The notes under the pieces were generated by a model. It searched no databases, was not told where the DNA came from, and was given only the letters and a program-made list of their open reading frames with translations. Positions 15,691 through 24,484 of a stretch of 40,706 nucleotides of DNA are shown here, in pieces. Position 1 is the stretch's first letter, and every line of letters starts with the position of its first letter. Source of the DNA: Candidatus Woesearchaeota archaeon (lineage in GTDB: Archaea > Nanobdellota > Nanobdellia > Woesearchaeales > GCA-2687795). The stretch is from assembly GCA_002687795.1 (NCBI GenBank), contig NZBG01000032.1, positions 1 through 40,706 on the forward strand, read 5' to 3'. Made by a program: the position numbers and the translations under genes.

Positions 15691-16671
15691 TTAAGGCTTT
15701 ATAATAACCTTCAAGGATTCATCCCCTTCAGTTACGAGCTTGAAGCCTTTCTCAATATCTTTTAATGGGAGTCTGTGCGTTATCATATCATCCACCTTGA
15801 TTTTTCCTGAACTGAGCAGCTCAAAGGCTTCTTTCATGTCATCAGGAGCGCAATAATAAGATGCCATAATCTTAACCTCTTTTCTCCAGAAATCGTTGAC
15901 AGGCACAATAACATCTTTGTCAGGATGGGGAACAGTGAATAATATTATGGTGCCGGCTAAATCAACAGCTTTCCAGGCCTGCTCTATTGCAGGCATTGCC
16001 CCGCTGCATACAATAACAACATCAAATTTCTCTTTGAGCTCTTCTTTAGCATTAAATGTTCTGGCTCCTAATTTCTCTGCGAATTTTAATCTGTTTTCAT
16101 TGATGTCTGTTGAGGTTACTATTGCCTTTTTATTGAGCGCCAGCTTTATGTGCAACAGGCCGGACATGCCACTGCCTAAAATTAGAACATTATCATTTTC
16201 CTTTATTCCTGCAAATTTCTGCGCCCTTACTACACATGCCAAAGGTTCTACAAAAGTTGCAGTGTCATAGCTCATATCCTTTGGAATCAAGAAAACAGCA
16301 TTATTGACAAGCTCTTCAGGGATAAGTACAAATTCAGAGAATGCTCCCGGCAGTCTTGCCTTTGCATTCGGGCATACTGAATGATGGCCTTTTTTGCAGT
16401 ATTTGCAGTTGCTACAGCCTATTTTAGGGGCTACAAAGATCCTGTCCCCTTTTTTGTAATTATCAACAGAAGAGCCTATCTCAACAATCTCTCCGCTGGC
16501 TTCATGGCCTGGGATAAGCGGTGCTCTTGGCAGCCTGTACCATTCAACAATATCGCTGCCGCATATTCCGCAGGAATGAACTTTGAATAGAATTTCATTG
16601 GCTTGCGGCTTAGGCTTTTCTCTTTCTTCTATCCTTATATCATTATTGTTATACCAGACTGTAACCTTCAT
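15691..16671 (-). CDS. Zn-dependent MDR dehydrogenase, sorbitol/iditol/threonine DH-like, NAD-type
   Basis: CGICGSD, GHE, structural CxxCxxCx7C, EPLAC, GSGMSG, acidic residue in TDIN. Confidence 0.9.
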   Translation of the reverse strand: MKVTVWYNNNDIRIEEREKPKPQANEILFKVHSCGICGSDIVEWYRLPRAPLIPGHEASGEIVEIGSSVDNYKKGDRIFVAPKIGCSNCKYCKKGHHSVCPNAKARLPGAFSEFVLIPEELVNNAVFLIPKDMSYDTATFVEPLACVVRAQKFAGIKENDNVLILGSGMSGLLHIKLALNKKAIVTSTDINENRLKFAEKLGARTFNAKEELKEKFDVVIVCSGAMPAIEQAWKAVDLAGTIILFTVPHPDKDVIVPVNDFWRKEVKIMASYYCAPDDMKEAFELLSSGKIKVDDMITHRLPLKDIEKGFKLVTEGDESLKVIIKP

Positions 16672-16687
16672 TTAGATTCCTCGGGGC

Positions 16688-17467
16688 CTATTTGCTTTTG
16701 TCAAAGATATCCTGTGCTTCCTTTACAGTTGCATCTTTGTGTATTATAGCTTGGAGAGCTGCTGCCATTGCAACCGGATGCGCATGCTGCCAGACGTTCC
16801 TTCCGAGGTTAATCCCAACAGCGCCTTTCTGCATTCCGTCATGCACAAACTCAAACACTTCTTTTTCCGTCTCGCATTTAGGGCCGCCTGCAATAACCAC
16901 AGGAACAGGGCAGCCTTCCACAACCTTATCAAAGTCCTCGCACCAGTATGTTTTAACAACACTAGCCCCTAATTCAGCTGCTATCCTTGAGCATAAGCCA
17001 AGATAACGCGCATCTCTTTTTTCTAATTCCTTGCCAACAGCTGTAACCCCCATCACAGGGATTCCATACTCCTGGCATTCATTCACAAGCTTTGAGAAAT
17101 TCATCAGGGTCTGGTGCTCATATTTAGCGCCAACATAGATAGAAAACCCAACTGCCTGAGCATTAAGCCTTAACACTTCCTGGATTGAGGTTGTGATTTC
17201 CTCATTTGATAAGTTATCTCCAATTATGCTGTTACCCCCTGAAACCCTGAGTATGATTGGCTTGGTGTTTTCAGGCTCAACACAGTTTCTTAGAACTCCT
17301 CTTGTCATAAAAAGTGCATCAACATAAGGCAGTAATGGTTTAATGGTTTCTCCTGGCTTCTCCAGCTTGCTGGTTGGCCCAAGAAAGTAGCCATGATCAA
17401 CTGGCATAAAAAAGCATTTGCCATTTGGCATTAATTTTGCTAACCTATTCTTCATTCCCCAATCCAT
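16688..17467 (-). CDS. lsrF: LsrF-family 3-hydroxy-5-phosphonooxypentane-2,4-dione thiolase (class I aldolase fold)
   Basis: N-terminal MDWGMKNRL, DHGYFLGPT, RIAAELGA.VVKTY (Schiff-base Lys), VIAGGPK, GRNVWQ. Confidence 0.85.
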   Translation of the reverse strand: MDWGMKNRLAKLMPNGKCFFMPVDHGYFLGPTSKLEKPGETIKPLLPYVDALFMTRGVLRNCVEPENTKPIILRVSGGNSIIGDNLSNEEITTSIQEVLRLNAQAVGFSIYVGAKYEHQTLMNFSKLVNECQEYGIPVMGVTAVGKELEKRDARYLGLCSRIAAELGASVVKTYWCEDFDKVVEGCPVPVVIAGGPKCETEKEVFEFVHDGMQKGAVGINLGRNVWQHAHPVAMAAALQAIIHKDATVKEAQDIFDKSK

Positions 17468-17486
17468 TTTAAGTACCCCCGATTAT

Positions 17487-17699
17487 TTATTGTTCTGGCT
17501 TGATTACTTCAAAGCCTTTGTCAATCAGCCAATGATGAAACTGCCATGTTGTGAATTTGCAGCCTGTCCTGCAGGAAGCTCTTATCTTTTCATATTCTTC
17601 AGAGCCTTCCTCAAGAGAATTTAGCTGAAGCTGCACCGGGCATTTTACATCATTGCAAAATTCCCTTTTCTTATAATCAGTATATCCTGGTATTGCCAT
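17487..17699 (-). CDS. Small Cys/His-rich putative metal-binding protein, first gene of the lsrF operon
   Basis: C-x4-C ... C-x3-C ... FHHW; TATA TTTATATA upstream; short spacer to lsrF with SD GGGGGT. Confidence 0.7.
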   Translation of the reverse strand: MAIPGYTDYKKREFCNDVKCPVQLQLNSLEEGSEEYEKIRASCRTGCKFTTWQFHHWLIDKGFEVIKPEQ

Positions 17700-17752
17700 A
17701 TGAGAAGGGAAAGAGGGTTGATATATAAAATTTATGCTGTTTGAAAAAAATC

Positions 17753-17924
17753 GAGGGCTTTACCCTGCCATAAATGACAGGGATTCAGCCAGCTCTATTT
17801 TTGAGCATCCTAAGAAATTGCGGAGCAATTTCTGGGACACCAAAAATTCCAAAGGAATTTTTTAGTGAATAAGAACGGGCATTCGTCCCCTGCTTAAAAG
17901 TAGGGAATTCCTACCCGTTTTATT
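17753..17924. repeat. Cluster of nested palindromes (REP/MITE-like, IS200/IS605-end-like hairpins)
   Basis: CCCTGCCA-TAAA-TGACAGGG (17763-17782); AGAAATTGC-GGA-GCAATTTCT (17813-17833); AAAAATTCC-AAA-GGAATTTTT (17842-17862); AATAAGAACGGG...CCCGTTTTATT enclosing CCCTGCTTAAAAGTAGGG. Confidence 0.8.
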
Positions 17925-17966
17925 TAATCTAAAAATATATATATAACAAAGAATTAACATAAAGTT

Positions 17967-19088
17967 ATGCAGGCCTTAGCAATAACATCAAAAGGAATGG
18001 AAGATATCGCAGCATTAGAGATAAAGGAACTGATTAAAGCAGAGAGCAGTGTGAAGGAGTCCTGCGTGATGTTTGAGCCTAAGAAACTGGAGGATTTATG
18101 CACTTTGTGCTATAAGGCACAGTCAGTTTCAAGGATTTTGGTTCTGTTCCATCATTTTAAGTTTAAAGATAAGGCTGATTTACTTAAGAAGATTAATCTT
18201 GAAAAGATTGATTATAACAAATGGCTTGATAAAAAGAACACATTCAAGATAGAATGCGAAAGGCTTGGAAAACATAACTTCTCAAGCCAGGAGATTGAGC
18301 AGGAGATAGGGGAACTTATTTCTGTTAAGAATAAGGTTGAGCTAAAGAACCCTGATATTACATTTTATGCTTATATTTTTGATAAAGAGCTTTATTTTGG
18401 GATAGATTTCTCAGGGTTTGAGCTAAGCAAAAGGCATTACAAGATATTTAACCATCCCAATGATATCAAGGGCCATATTGCTTATGTGTTGGTAAGGCTT
18501 AGCGGGTTTAAAGTTGGGGATGTTCTTTTAGACCCTTTCTGCAAGACAGGGGTTATAGCAATTGAGGCAGCATTATTTGCTTCAGGTTTTCCTGTTAATT
18601 ATTTTAGCAAGGATAAGTTTGGGTTTTTGAAGTTAAAGCCTATAAAGAAGTTTAATTTTGATACGGTTGACAAGAAAACAAAGAAAATTAAAAAACATAT
18701 ATTCGGTTATGAAAAATCATCCTTTTACACACAGTCTGCTAAGAAGAATGCTAAGATTGCAGGCGTTAATGATATGGCTGAGTTCTCCAGCAATGATGTT
18801 GAATGGGTTGATACGCACTTTAAAGAAAAGGAAGTGAACAGGATAGTTACATATCCTCCTATACTTTCTAAGAAGAGCAATAAGAATGAGATATTAAAGC
18901 TTTACCAGGAGCTGTTCTATCAGGCTAATTATTGTTTGGCTAAGGATGGAAGGATAGTTGTCCTGACTAAAGATATTGAGCTGTTTAAGGAGAAAGCTAA
19001 GGGGTATAAGTTTAAGGTTGTTGAGGAGAGGAAGGTTTGGATAGGGGAGATGGTTATGGACATTGTTGTGTTTGGAAAAGGTTTATAA
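17967..19088 (+). CDS. THUMP-domain RNA methyltransferase (Trm14/RlmL-like)
   Basis: N-terminal 'T.KGMEDIAALEI', THUMP 'G.HNFSSQEIE..IG', 'ID.SG.EL.KR.Y', 'LLDPFC.TG.IAIEAA'. Confidence 0.85.
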   Translation: MQALAITSKGMEDIAALEIKELIKAESSVKESCVMFEPKKLEDLCTLCYKAQSVSRILVLFHHFKFKDKADLLKKINLEKIDYNKWLDKKNTFKIECERLGKHNFSSQEIEQEIGELISVKNKVELKNPDITFYAYIFDKELYFGIDFSGFELSKRHYKIFNHPNDIKGHIAYVLVRLSGFKVGDVLLDPFCKTGVIAIEAALFASGFPVNYFSKDKFGFLKLKPIKKFNFDTVDKKTKKIKKHIFGYEKSSFYTQSAKKNAKIAGVNDMAEFSSNDVEWVDTHFKEKEVNRIVTYPPILSKKSNKNEILKLYQELFYQANYCLAKDGRIVVLTKDIELFKEKAKGYKFKVVEERKVWIGEMVMDIVVFGKGL

Positions 19089-19122
19089 TATTAGGCTGAT
19101 TATCCTTTCTTAGGCGATACTT

Positions 19123-20226
19123 ATGAATGTTGATGGAAAACACTACAGAACAATCTGGCTGAAAGAAGATGATAATAAGGTTGTTCAGATAATTGATCAA
19201 AGACCTCTCCCGTATGAATTTGTAATTGAAGATCTTAGAACTGTTGATGATGTTGCAGTAGCTATAAAGGATATGCATGTTAGGGGCGCAGGATTAATTG
19301 GGGCAACTGCTGGTTATGGTATGTATATTGCAGCCTTGGAAGCGCCAAAAGAAGGTTTTGATGATTTCTTGAATAAAGCTGGTGAGAAATTAAAAGCAAC
19401 AAGGCCCACTGCTGTTAATCTTGCATGGGCTGTTAAAAGGCAACTTGATGCTGTATCAAAAGGAAGTTCTGTTGATGAAAAAAGAGAAATTGCATTTAAG
19501 GTTGCTAAAGATATTGCTAATGAGGATGCTGAGTATTGCAGAAGAATAGGAGAGCATGGAATGAAGATTATTGAGGAGATAAGCAAGAGAAATAATGGTG
19601 AAGTTGTGAATATCCTCACGCACTGCAATGCTGGCTGGCTTGCGTTTGTTGATTTTGGTTCAGCTACTTCTCCTATCTATGCTGCTTTTGATAAGGGGAT
19701 TAAGGTTCATGTTTATGTGGATGAGACAAGGCCTAGAAATCAGGGTGCAAGGCTTACTGCCTGGGAACTTCTTAACCAGGGGGTGCCTCATACTGTGATA
19801 CCTGATAATGTGGGTGGCCATCTTATGCAGCATGGTATGGTTGATATGGTTATTGTTGGCACTGACAGGACTACTTATACTGGTGATGTTGCTAATAAGA
19901 TTGGAACTTATCTTAAGGCATTGGCAGCAAAGGATAATGATATCCCATTTTATGTAGCGCTTCCTTCCTCAACATTTGACTGGACAAAAGAGGATGGTGT
20001 TAAAGATATTCCTATTGAAGAAAGAGGAGCTGAAGAGGTTAAGTATATCCAAGGATTATGTGAGGGTGAGATTAAGAAGGTTCTTTTAACACCAGAGAAA
20101 AGCCCTGCTACGAATTATGCATTTGATGTGACTCCTGCTAGGTTGGTTACTGGACTCATCACAGAAAGAGGTATATGCAAGGCTGATAAGGATAGTATAT
20201 TAGAACTTTACCCTGAGCATAAATAA
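19123..20226 (+). CDS. mtnA: Methylthioribose-1-phosphate isomerase
   Basis: IIDQR.LP, VRGAGLIG, ATRPTAVNL, LTHCNAGWLA, VDETRPRNQGARLTAWEL, GDVANKIGTY, NYAFDVTP. Confidence 0.93.
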   Translation: MNVDGKHYRTIWLKEDDNKVVQIIDQRPLPYEFVIEDLRTVDDVAVAIKDMHVRGAGLIGATAGYGMYIAALEAPKEGFDDFLNKAGEKLKATRPTAVNLAWAVKRQLDAVSKGSSVDEKREIAFKVAKDIANEDAEYCRRIGEHGMKIIEEISKRNNGEVVNILTHCNAGWLAFVDFGSATSPIYAAFDKGIKVHVYVDETRPRNQGARLTAWELLNQGVPHTVIPDNVGGHLMQHGMVDMVIVGTDRTTYTGDVANKIGTYLKALAAKDNDIPFYVALPSSTFDWTKEDGVKDIPIEERGAEEVKYIQGLCEGEIKKVLLTPEKSPATNYAFDVTPARLVTGLITERGICKADKDSILELYPEHK

Positions 20227-22681: not shown

Positions 22682-22956
22682 CTATTCAATGATTTGAGAT
22701 GAAAGAAAAAGAATGAAGCTAATTTATTTACCCTGCTCACCGCTTTTGTTTAACATAATGCAGCTATACTGTTCTCATCTGAACTCAAATTACTGATAAA
22801 TGTGTTTATTAAATTAGCGTCACTCAGATTCTTCTAATTTGTCTATACATGATGGATGTACCTTACAAAAATGGAGAATTAATTCACCAATAAAAGTAAT
22901 AATCACAAATATTGCTGAAAATCCAACTAAAAATAGAATATAATTAAACAATGTCT

Positions 22957-23201
22957 GCTTTAATAACCATTCTTGTCTTTTATTTCTCTTCCTGGATAGG
23001 ATTGTTGGTTCTATTTGTGAGCACAGCTGTTGGCCTAATACCTTCTTTAGTTGGTGTTAAGAAAAGCCTTACGATGGGTTGTTTGTTGCTGCCTGTGATA
23101 TTGTTTTTTGTGCTTTAGAATTCATTTCAAACTCAACACATTAGAATGCACAACAATCGCTCTGTCTCTAGTGGTCTTGAACTTGATTGAGGCTGGTGAC
23201 A
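22957..23201. repeat. 245-bp diverged direct copy of 24323-24567 (3' ends of tctA-like gene and convergent surface-protein gene)
   Basis: Ungapped alignment, offset 1366; about 21 mismatches by hand count (~91% identity). Confidence 0.95.
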
Positions 23202-23269: not shown

Positions 23270-24484
23270 ATGCTCTTTTTAGAGTTTTTAACAGCAATAA
23301 TGCTTGGCATTAGCTTTGGGATAATCACAGGCTTAATCCCGGGCATCCATGTTAACCTTATTTCCATAATCCTTCTGGGCCTGTCCAGTTATCTGTTAGG
23401 GTTTGTCTCAGCCATTACCGTCTGCATCTTCATAGTTGCAATGGCTATCACACATACTTTTCTTGATGCTTTGCCAAGCATTTTCCTGGGATCTCCTGAC
23501 CCTGGCACTGCATTATCTGTCTTGCCTGGGCATGCTCTCCTGTTGAGAGGAATGGGTTATGAGGCGGTAAGGTTAACAGTAATTGGAAGCTTTCTGTCAT
23601 TACTGGTTACTCTTTTGTGCATCCCTTTCCTGATACCTGTTGTGCCAAAGATCTATGGTTTTATCCAGCCTTATATTGGATATATACTGATAGCGGTTGT
23701 GGTTTATGTTATATTGACTGGAAAGACTAAGGAAAAGATCTTTTATAGCAGCTTTGTTTTTATTTTGTCCGGTATTTTAGGGCAGATTGTGTTTGGCATT
23801 CCTAATATAAAGCAGCCCTTGTTTCCCATGCTTTCAGGAATGTTTGGGGTAAGCATCTTATTAATCTCTTTATCAAACAAAGTGGATATCCCAAAGCAAA
23901 GGGTAACAGAGATGATTAAGGTTAGCAAGCTTAACAAGATAAAGGCTATCGGCGCTGCTGTGTTCTCAGGCTCTTTGACAGCATTGTTTCCAGGCCTTGG
24001 AGCTGCCCAGGCAGCTATCATTGCAATGGCTATTGTTGGAAAGATTGGAACCTACAGCTTTCTTATCCTTATTGGCGGCATCAACACAGTAAACTTCTTA
24101 TTTTCTTTAGTAACATTATACACATTGAACAAAGCCAGAAACGGAGCTGTTGTAGCTGTGCTTGAGATAGTTAAAAGCATTAGCCTAAGTGAATTATTAG
24201 TTTTATTATGCGCTGCTTTAATAGCAGGCTGTGTTGCTGCATTCTTAGCATTAAGGATTGGCAGGGTTTTTTCCAGGCTGGTGACAAAGGTAAAATATTC
24301 CTATCTCTGCATCTCAATAATAGCTTTAATAACCATTCTTGTTTTTTATTTCTCTTCCTGGATAGGATTGTTGGTCTTATTTGTGAGCACAGCTATTGGC
24401 CTGATACCTTCTTTGGTTGGCGTTAAGAAAAGCCTTGCAATGGGCTGTTTGCTGCTGCCGGTGATATTATTTTTTGTGCTTTAG
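23270..24484 (+). CDS. TctA/DUF112-family tripartite tricarboxylate transporter-like permease
   Basis: GIITGLIPGIHVN, HTFLD..PSIFLG.PD, LPGH, KARNG; many TMs. Confidence 0.85.
   Translation: MLFLEFLTAIMLGISFGIITGLIPGIHVNLISIILLGLSSYLLGFVSAITVCIFIVAMAITHTFLDALPSIFLGSPDPGTALSVLPGHALLLRGMGYEAVRLTVIGSFLSLLVTLLCIPFLIPVVPKIYGFIQPYIGYILIAVVVYVILTGKTKEKIFYSSFVFILSGILGQIVFGIPNIKQPLFPMLSGMFGVSILLISLSNKVDIPKQRVTEMIKVSKLNKIKAIGAAVFSGSLTALFPGLGAAQAAIIAMAIVGKIGTYSFLILIGGINTVNFLFSLVTLYTLNKARNGAVVAVLEIVKSISLSELLVLLCAALIAGCVAAFLALRIGRVFSRLVTKVKYSYLCISIIALITILVFYFSSWIGLLVLFVSTAIGLIPSLVGVKKSLAMGCLLLPVILFFVL

Follow-up and report, generated by a model that had tools for sequence, protein, structure and literature searches.

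An LsrF–zinc dehydrogenase operon near mtnA in a Woesearchaeota archaeon: a conserved gene pair with a possible role in the salvage of S-adenosylmethionine by-products

Gene order at the locus and identity of its enzymes

We analyzed a 40,706-nt stretch of DNA from a Candidatus Woesearchaeota archaeon (contig NZBG01000032.1 of assembly GCA_002687795.1), hereafter the window, which carries a three-gene cluster centered on a homologue of LsrF, a protein annotated as an autoinducer-2 (AI-2) aldolase. The cluster lies on the minus strand and begins with a gene for a 70-aa Cys/His protein (17487–17699), followed by the 259-aa LsrF homologue, which has a class I aldolase fold (16688–17467), and, as last gene, a 326-aa Zn dehydrogenase with ADH_N and ADH_zinc_N domains (15691–16671). 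The intergenic gaps are 19 and 16 nt and the trio therefore reads as a single operon. On the plus strand lies the gene for MtnA, the 5-methylthioribose-1-phosphate/5-deoxyribose-1-phosphate isomerase (19123–20226; 367 aa), which is divergent from the operon, with 1,424 bases between its start and that of the 70-aa gene; its product scores 409.6 bits with the MtnA model TIGR00512 (cut-off 279). A gene for a THUMP methyltransferase is interposed between the two. A preliminary description of this DNA, made from the sequence alone, had reported the same operon, the same divergent mtnA about 1.4 kb away and the same intervening gene, and all of them are found where it placed them. The operon is one member of a widespread, uncharacterized two-enzyme module of anaerobes, formed by LsrF and the dehydrogenase.

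The LsrF homologue exceeds the cut-off of the LsrF equivalog NF006081 (342.3 bits, cut-off 297) and stays under those of ADH synthase AroA' (TIGR01949; 189.4 bits, cut-off 299.45) and of the archaeal class I fructose-bisphosphate (FBP) aldolase model (126 bits, cut-off 430). Against solved structures it reaches 248 bits with E. coli LsrF versus 137 with MJ0400. Passages of a paper describing E. coli LsrF structures with substrate analogues assign roles to Schiff-base Lys203, to Asp57 and His58, and to a phosphate site made of Gly226, Gly227, Gly253 and Arg254 (Diaz 2009, PMC2728841). In our alignment each of these residues (D57, H58, K203, G226, G227, G253 and R254) is kept in the window protein. 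Because the equivalog cut-off is passed and the Schiff-base lysine, Asp57/His58 and the phosphate residues are retained, a small phosphorylated keto-sugar would be the expected ligand. The positions equivalent to 251 and 252 separate two subtypes among 85 aligned rows: Asn-Leu is found in the window protein (hence its ‘NL’ subtype) and 75 others, Thr-Leu in one, and Asp-Met in E. coli LsrF and the phylum's seven further LsrFs, which have the full E. coli residue set, Asp251 included, and score 331–425 bits with the thiolase equivalog. The nearest relatives of the window protein share 72–78% identity with it and those with names are mostly bacterial (Omnitrophota, Nitrospirota, Desulfobacterota, Chloroflexota and others), while LsrFs from elsewhere in its phylum reach only 44–56%. 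In a quick tree with SH-aLRT support only, it falls within a clade of 77 mostly bacterial sequences, beside a sequence from Bathyarchaeota, and E. coli LsrF clusters with six of the LsrFs of the phylum.

Does the operon handle AI-2? The protein passes the LsrF equivalog cut-off and homologues in anaerobes have been so interpreted in print; a transcriptome paper on a syntrophic bacterium, in the portion accessible to us, takes one of them, Sfum_2464, as an ‘AI-2 receptor’ (PMC10787695). Nevertheless, we regard it as very improbable that LsrF here processes imported phospho-AI-2 next to unrelated neighbors. The host assembly (925,456 bases in 39 contigs, the window being contig C32) is 75.8% complete, so that absences from it are provisional; within it tblastn with E. 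coli queries gives no match at E ≤ 1e-3 for LsrK, LsrR, LsrC, LsrD, LsrB or LsrG and a generic ABC ATPase match only for LsrA, and no LuxS is found. Likewise, the 91 context loci contain no homologues of LsrK, LsrG, LsrB, LsrC, LsrD or LsrR, generic ABC ATPase matches aside. Moreover, the conserved partner of LsrF is a dehydrogenase, which is absent from the Lsr system. The window had been described as free of AI-2 genes and of class II aldolases, and this extends to the whole assembly (tblastn and PF00596, respectively).

The dehydrogenase matches 22 NCBIfam families and reaches the cut-off of none, the best being Tdh (158.8 bits, cut-off 380), with GatD at 133.3 bits (cut-off 550). The closest solved structures are ketose reductase and sorbitol, butanediol and xylitol dehydrogenases. 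In all 66 aligned dehydrogenases the zinc ligands C37, H56, E57 and E142 are present, as are the structural-zinc residues C86, C89, C92 and C100 and the NAD-type D189. Judged by this Cys-His-Glu-Glu site, by D189 and by the nearest structures, the enzyme is classed as an NAD-type, polyol-class Zn enzyme of the medium-chain dehydrogenase/reductase (MDR) superfamily, in line with the preliminary description, and we propose for it the role of a ketose-1-phosphate 4-dehydrogenase. In this family a His-His pair precedes the structural-zinc loop, replaced by Pro-Lys in the subtype of the window enzyme; this ‘APK’ subtype is common to its 57–73% identical relatives, two of which are labelled Aenigmarchaeota or Aenigmatarchaeota. 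A metagenome scan with the dehydrogenase returned four loci, two of them copies of one sequence, and one metagenome contig couples an APK-subtype dehydrogenase with an Asp-Met LsrF; the pairing therefore spans the two subtypes of each protein.

Conservation of the pair and its linkage to salvage genes

Our sample of the phylum comprises 401 genomes, including the unpublished G244, G322 and G333. The LsrF model is over its cut-off in eight of them, from eight different families. In 116 others there are weak DhnA-type matches only (78–201 bits); these branch outside the LsrF group in the quick tree and are presumably FBP aldolases, for which the name LsrF should be avoided. The MtnA model exceeds its cut-off in 28 genomes, namely seven of the eight LsrF carriers versus 21 of the 393 others (Fisher 3e-8), and methylthioadenosine phosphorylase (MTAP) in 149, namely all eight carriers versus 141 of the 393 (Fisher 3e-4), relatedness and genome size being uncontrolled in both comparisons. 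The one LsrF carrier without MtnA is G269, a 180-contig assembly. The preliminary description had made its proposal depend on linkage of these genes with mtnA and mtnP across genomes, and such linkage is found, is strong and extends over the eight families.

Physical proximity accompanies this co-occurrence. The dehydrogenase adjoins LsrF in the host (G000), G222, G269, G035 and G346, and a single gene lies between them in G350, which makes six of the eight LsrF carriers; in five carriers (G000, G222, G244, G035 and G346) no more than 5 kb separates MtnA from LsrF. In G269 it is MTAP that adjoins the dehydrogenase–LsrF pair, in G244 the dehydrogenase adjoins an APRT-like/MTAP pair, and in G346 MtnA is followed by PanB, APRT and the S-adenosylmethionine (SAM) synthetase MetK (L006:13566–16084), a small SAM/adenine-recycling neighborhood. 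A search of 351 genomes at E ≤ 1e-70 places the dehydrogenase in nine, seven LsrF carriers together with G167 and G268, and in all nine its gene is next to LsrF, MtnA or MTAP; it overlaps the start of MtnA in G167, and in G268 one orphan gene stands between it and MtnA. Two further features of these loci deserve mention. Between MtnA and LsrF of G222 lie genes for paralogous proteins of 446 and 481 aa with a formylmethanofuran dehydrogenase subunit C-like (GXGXG) region (L002:2013–4804), and a gene with reverse transcriptase and HTH_40 domains (L090:8918–10609) is located 2.7 kb from the dehydrogenase–MtnA operon of G167.

Outside the phylum we examined 80 LsrF loci, on contigs taken at one genome per species and with LsrFs 69–76% identical to that of the window; they span many anaerobic bacterial phyla as well as Hadarchaeum and Bathyarchaeota. 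The LsrF–dehydrogenase arrangement exceeds chance, because the pair recurs not only in six of the eight LsrF-bearing genomes of the phylum but also in 62 of these 80 loci. The remaining 18 loci have a fusion of an aldolase with a short-chain dehydrogenase/reductase (aldolase::SDR) instead (seven), reach the contig end within 500 bases of LsrF (five) or show neither (six). In nine of the 80 an MtnA-like IF-2B gene belongs to the same operon (TIGR00524, 197 bits against a cut-off of 186). These nine loci, from Planctomycetota and Omnitrophota, follow the order MtnA-like IF-2B gene, class II aldolase-family gene, in some cases an aldehyde dehydrogenase, LsrF and dehydrogenase, and upstream of them lies a PNP_UDP_1 phosphorylase (four loci) or a class IV aminotransferase, with Amidohydro_2; the linkage seen in the phylum thus has a bacterial counterpart, in which one operon variant also encodes a nucleoside phosphorylase together with an MtnA-like isomerase. 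The class II aldolase-family product of these operons, about 333 aa long (L012:5462–6469; also in L017, L039, L042, L049, L066, L078, L082 and L084), is covered by aldolase models over residues ~11–192, and its C-terminal ~140 residues are conserved beyond them. Genes related to CoA recur around the pair, with a family III CoA-transferase in five loci, an acyl-CoA ligase in three and CoaE in six. Where the module stands alone, MtnA is over cut-off elsewhere in all four genomes inspected, which is weak evidence because eight of 14 control genomes also have MtnA. Homologues of the dehydrogenase number 5442 at E ≤ 1e-40 and LsrF candidates at least 8000, all at E ≤ 1e-30.

The diversity of these outside loci raises the question of whether the pair might break down some other phosphorylated deoxy- or keto-sugar, in which case its closeness to MtnA and MTAP would reflect shared regulation or general nucleoside-sugar scavenging rather than a direct transfer of substrate. 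Candidates would be a 6-deoxy-hexulose-1-phosphate derived from fucose or rhamnose (giving dihydroxyacetone phosphate (DHAP) and lactyl-CoA), 1-deoxy-xylulose-5-phosphate, or a diketone that arises spontaneously, for example phospho-DPD. MtnA-like neighbors are lacking in 71 of the 80 loci; nine Nitrospirota-type loci have the order CxxCxxCC protein, LsrF, dehydrogenase, and eight of them continue with a PfkB sugar kinase; the seven aldolase::SDR fusions are of the rhamnulose-1-phosphate aldolase type (NF006194, 889 bits, cut-off 686); an aldehyde dehydrogenase is near the pair in eight loci; and an alpha-L-fucosidase is beside it in L094. In addition, chemical reasoning indicates that oxidation of 1-deoxy-xylulose-5-phosphate at C4 would also yield 3-hydroxy-2,4-pentanedione-5-phosphate (P-HPD), the LsrF substrate. 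Even so, we deem a different substrate unlikely: among the 351 genomes the dehydrogenase is found only next to LsrF, MtnA or MTAP and its translation in G167 is coupled to that of MtnA, the small archaeal loci that were read bear no sign of fucose or rhamnose catabolism, and no LuxS is found in the host assembly.

The other genes of the window locus are less widely shared. The 70-aa protein has no Pfam or NCBIfam match even at E ≤ 1; homologues with 40–69% identity sit directly upstream of LsrF in 21 of the 80 outside loci, and C15, C20, C43, C47 and H55 are present in every one of 12 sequences of the family. An AlphaFold2 model built with these 12 sequences has a mean pLDDT of 57.8, too low for fold comparison, the ESM Atlas match is to one unnamed cluster of 1908 members, and the predicted complex with LsrF (score 0.00, mark 0.32) speaks neither for nor against an interaction. 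All-against-all BLAST of the neighbors did not recover the protein at any of the seven remaining LsrF loci in the phylum, and the same comparison of family-less neighbors reveals no extra gene common to the phylum's LsrF loci; Pfam at E ≤ 1 likewise yields no informative match for further neighbors without a family. The interposed Trm14-like THUMP tRNA methyltransferase (17967–19088, plus strand; UPF0020 and THUMP domains), placed outside the pathway proposed below, is separated from the 70-aa gene by a divergent spacer of 267 nt and is followed 34 nt downstream by mtnA; it scores 212.7 bits with NF040721, under the cut-off of 280, and the related loci contain nothing homologous to it at E ≤ 1e-5. 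On the other side of mtnA lies a gene for EF-1beta. Further along the window, a 55-aa open reading frame (22951–23118) is a near-exact repeat of the C-terminal ~50 residues of a 404-aa membrane protein (23270–24484), whose gene it shortly precedes upstream, and looks like a partial duplication of the 3' end of its gene.

A possible route for 5'-deoxyadenosine

What could such a module do beside salvage genes? 5'-Deoxyadenosine is a by-product of every radical-SAM enzyme and inhibits these enzymes. To our knowledge, the established routes for its disposal all end in a class II aldolase, and many radical-SAM-rich anaerobes have no assigned route. We tentatively propose, at a little less than an even chance, that the LsrF–dehydrogenase module operates downstream of promiscuous MTAP and MtnA, processing 5'-deoxyadenosine and perhaps methylthioadenosine, and is unrelated to AI-2 uptake. 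MTAP would convert 5'-deoxyadenosine into adenine and 5-deoxyribose-1-phosphate, which MtnA would isomerize to 5-deoxyribulose-1-phosphate. The NAD-dependent polyol-type dehydrogenase would then oxidize the C4 hydroxyl to give P-HPD, and LsrF, through a Schiff base on its conserved lysine, would transfer the acetyl group to CoA, yielding DHAP and acetyl-CoA; with methylthioribulose-1-phosphate as substrate, the products would be DHAP and methylthioacetyl-CoA. On chemical grounds C4 oxidation of 5-deoxyribulose-1-phosphate should yield exactly P-HPD, which is the known substrate of LsrF, an enzyme whose activity was reportedly defined by Marques et al. in 2014. The LsrF substrate could therefore arise without LuxS, LsrK and LsrG, and, with these three missing from the assembly, no route to P-HPD other than the proposed one was found. 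Three facts fit this chemistry: the zinc site of the dehydrogenase is of the polyol class and its invariant Asp of the NAD type, LsrF keeps its lysine, Asp57/His58 and phosphate site, and CoA-handling genes are among the neighbors. We infer which compound is oxidized, at which position, and that CoA is required, whereas the gene identities, the operon structure, the conservation of the pair and its co-occurrence and adjacency with MtnA and MTAP are observed. The chemistry, which was put forward in the preliminary description, is the most economical explanation, although unproven.

The rest of the host genome bears on both ends of this route. A search for an MTA phosphorylase and a class II aldolase, suggested at the outset, yielded one MTAP and no match to PF00596. 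The MTAP is the single PNP_UDP_1 gene of the assembly (G000:C3:61188–61925; TIGR01694, 287–288 bits, cut-off 275). Radical-SAM domains over cut-off number 22 in 925 kb; these 22 genes and the one MTAP would provide a substrate source, and neither a class II aldolase nor RuBisCO or a RuBisCO-like protein was found in the assembly to take the product of MtnA. Thus, for the salvage of 5'-deoxyadenosine and methylthioadenosine, the first two steps are present and none of the known third steps is found. One spermine-synthase-like domain is present as well. The IF-2B gene of the window was also considered as a ribose-1,5-bisphosphate isomerase of the AMP/RuBisCO pathway and this was rejected, as it scores 164.2 bits with TIGR00511 (cut-off 314.1) and the assembly has no RuBisCO_large match. 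The radical-SAM domains are unevenly spread: contig C34 holds ten of the 22, several lying about 5 kb or less apart (C34:28933–33666 and 43706–46185), a cluster unusually dense for a 925-kb genome.

The main alternative is a DHAP shunt with a class I aldolase, in which LsrF would split 5-deoxyribulose-1-phosphate or methylthioribulose-1-phosphate into DHAP and acetaldehyde or 2-(methylthio)acetaldehyde, and the Zn dehydrogenase would reduce or oxidize the aldehyde. The linkage to MTAP and MtnA speaks for it as much as for our proposal, no class II aldolase was found in the host assembly, and LsrF has both a class I aldolase fold and the catalytic lysine. Furthermore, Asp251 is replaced in the clade of the window protein, so that its chemistry need not match that of E. 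coli LsrF, and a passage of a methionine-salvage review describes an unidentified alcohol dehydrogenase that reduces the aldehyde in the ethylene shunt, besides proposing an aldolase for 5-deoxyribulose-1-phosphate (PMC6302742). We nonetheless consider this quite unlikely. The zinc site and the nearest structures of the dehydrogenase are of the polyol/secondary-alcohol type and not of the Cys-His-Cys aldehyde-reductase type; a class II aldolase sharing the operon with LsrF, as it does in 25 of the 80 loci and in G035, would be redundant; Asp251 is kept in the phylum's seven other LsrFs, which score over the thiolase cut-off; genes handling CoA are recurrent neighbors; and in the accessible portion of the E. 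coli structural paper the aldolase mechanism figures as a working model only (Diaz 2009, PMC2728841).

Several observations weigh against the route through P-HPD. The support for it is gene context throughout, and the genomes of the phylum that bear LsrF and MtnA tend to be larger, which may inflate the co-occurrence of the two. In the window itself MtnA is divergent from the operon and co-directional with housekeeping genes, and outside the phylum its relatives accompany the pair in the nine operons only. Both enzymes also depart from their models. The window LsrF has N-L in place of D251-M252, and Asp251, beside the catalytic lysine, is proposed to be catalytic in E. coli in a passage of Diaz 2009 (PMC2728841); the window dehydrogenase has ‘APK’ where 65 of the 66 aligned members have ‘SHH’, with its near-invariant His-His. 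The module is incomplete in some genomes: G315 has LsrF and MtnA and no dehydrogenase, and G167 and G268 have dehydrogenase–MtnA operons and no LsrF-model match at E ≤ 1e-20. The 286-aa orphan of G268 (L091:9031–9891), which has no Pfam match at E ≤ 1 and no homologue in the fetched loci, could be a non-homologous replacement of LsrF. Class II aldolase-family genes are present in G035 and in the 25 outside loci (18 in the operon and seven SDR-fused), and in the shared operons this protein could itself be the cleaving enzyme. Among the 28 MtnA genomes, six have LsrF only, nine an aldolase only, one both and 12 neither, a split that is not significantly complementary (p=0.36). We rejected as a firm claim the idea that LsrF and class II aldolase are strict alternatives after MtnA; these counts lean toward it short of significance, and many bacterial operons hold both. 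Finally, the fate of the products in the host is a difficulty, since no triose-phosphate isomerase (TIM), no ADP-forming (ACD) or AMP-forming (ACS) acetyl-CoA synthetase and no pyruvate:ferredoxin oxidoreductase (PFOR) was found in the assembly. The benefit to a fermentative cell that had been foreseen thus finds no support in the 75.8%-complete assembly, where only a thiolase (C23:4335–4997) and GAPDH are present, the thiolase being the only acetyl-CoA user seen; Fe-ADH_2 has no match in the assembly either. From the side of supply, the host presents a thiolase and yet no PFOR, AMP-forming ligase or ADP-forming synthetase domain as a source of acetyl-CoA.

With these points in the balance, the module is real, conserved and so far undescribed, and in the phylum it is robustly tied to the genes of SAM by-product salvage. 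We would go further with considerable reserve, as a possibility that we doubt more than we favor: the thousands of genes from anaerobic bacteria and archaea that carry the annotation ‘AI-2 aldolase / LsrF’ or ‘L-iditol 2-dehydrogenase’ might constitute one undescribed module, a ketose-1-phosphate 4-dehydrogenase and a CoA-dependent C–C thiolase, that serves as the main anaerobic outlet for 5'-deoxyadenosine and possibly also for methylthioadenosine. It would deliver DHAP, NADH and acyl-CoA instead of a toxic aldehyde, and in genome-reduced archaea it could be one of few sources of acetyl-CoA. In the searchable literature, which comprises papers open without subscription and their text without supplements, no paper was found that combines LsrF with 5-deoxyribose or that brings 5-deoxyribulose 1-phosphate together with acetyl-CoA, a dehydrogenase and DHAP; nor does it name a 5-deoxyribulose- or methylthioribulose-1-phosphate dehydrogenase or methylthioacetyl-CoA. 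Among the matches listed, ‘LsrF’ has zero occurrences in papers on the DHAP shunt and on methionine salvage, the string occurring in unrelated biomedical work, and none places LsrF in the salvage of SAM by-products. If our proposal is true, it adds an energy-conserving, aldehyde-free branch to this salvage and gives a function to the very common LsrF–dehydrogenase gene pair. It would also correct a misleading ‘quorum sensing’ annotation, which, to go by the accessible portion of the transcriptome paper, has already been taken as AI-2 signaling in anaerobes (PMC10787695).

Relation to known systems

The module resembles several known systems without coinciding with any of them. With E. coli LsrF, the P-HPD thiolase (PDB 3GKF, 3GLC and 4P2V), the window protein shares the curated family, the Schiff-base lysine, Asp57/His58 and the three glycines and one arginine of the phosphate site; it differs in having no lsr operon around it, Asn-Leu for Asp251-Met252 and a Zn dehydrogenase as partner, and its substrate would come from an oxidation rather than from a kinase and an isomerase. 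The fold and the PF01791 domain are also common to ADH synthase AroA' (MJ0400) and the archaeal class I FBP aldolase of the DhnA family, although the window protein is below both curated cut-offs. The dehydrogenase has the zinc ligands, the structural zinc and the NAD-type Asp after the second beta-strand that characterize sorbitol, ketose, xylitol and butanediol dehydrogenases and galactitol-1-phosphate 5-dehydrogenase, but its family reaches no curated equivalog and has invariant residues of its own (His-His or Pro-Lys).

At the level of pathways, the nearest relative is the DHAP shunt, which consists of MtnP or MtnN/MtnK, MtnA and the class II aldolase Ald2/DrdA. The host has MTAP and MtnA over their cut-offs and DHAP would be a product in both cases; unlike in the shunt, no class II aldolase was found in the host, and the proposed oxidation and CoA thiolysis would give acetyl-CoA and NADH with no free aldehyde. 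The logic of making a beta-dicarbonyl compound and cleaving it with CoA is that of LsrG–LsrF and of Tdh–Kbl, threonine dehydrogenase and 2-amino-3-ketobutyrate CoA ligase. The proposed route would follow the same logic, and Tdh is the top sub-threshold NCBIfam match of the dehydrogenase, but the substrates and the fold of the cleaving enzyme are different and the dehydrogenase lies outside the Tdh equivalog.

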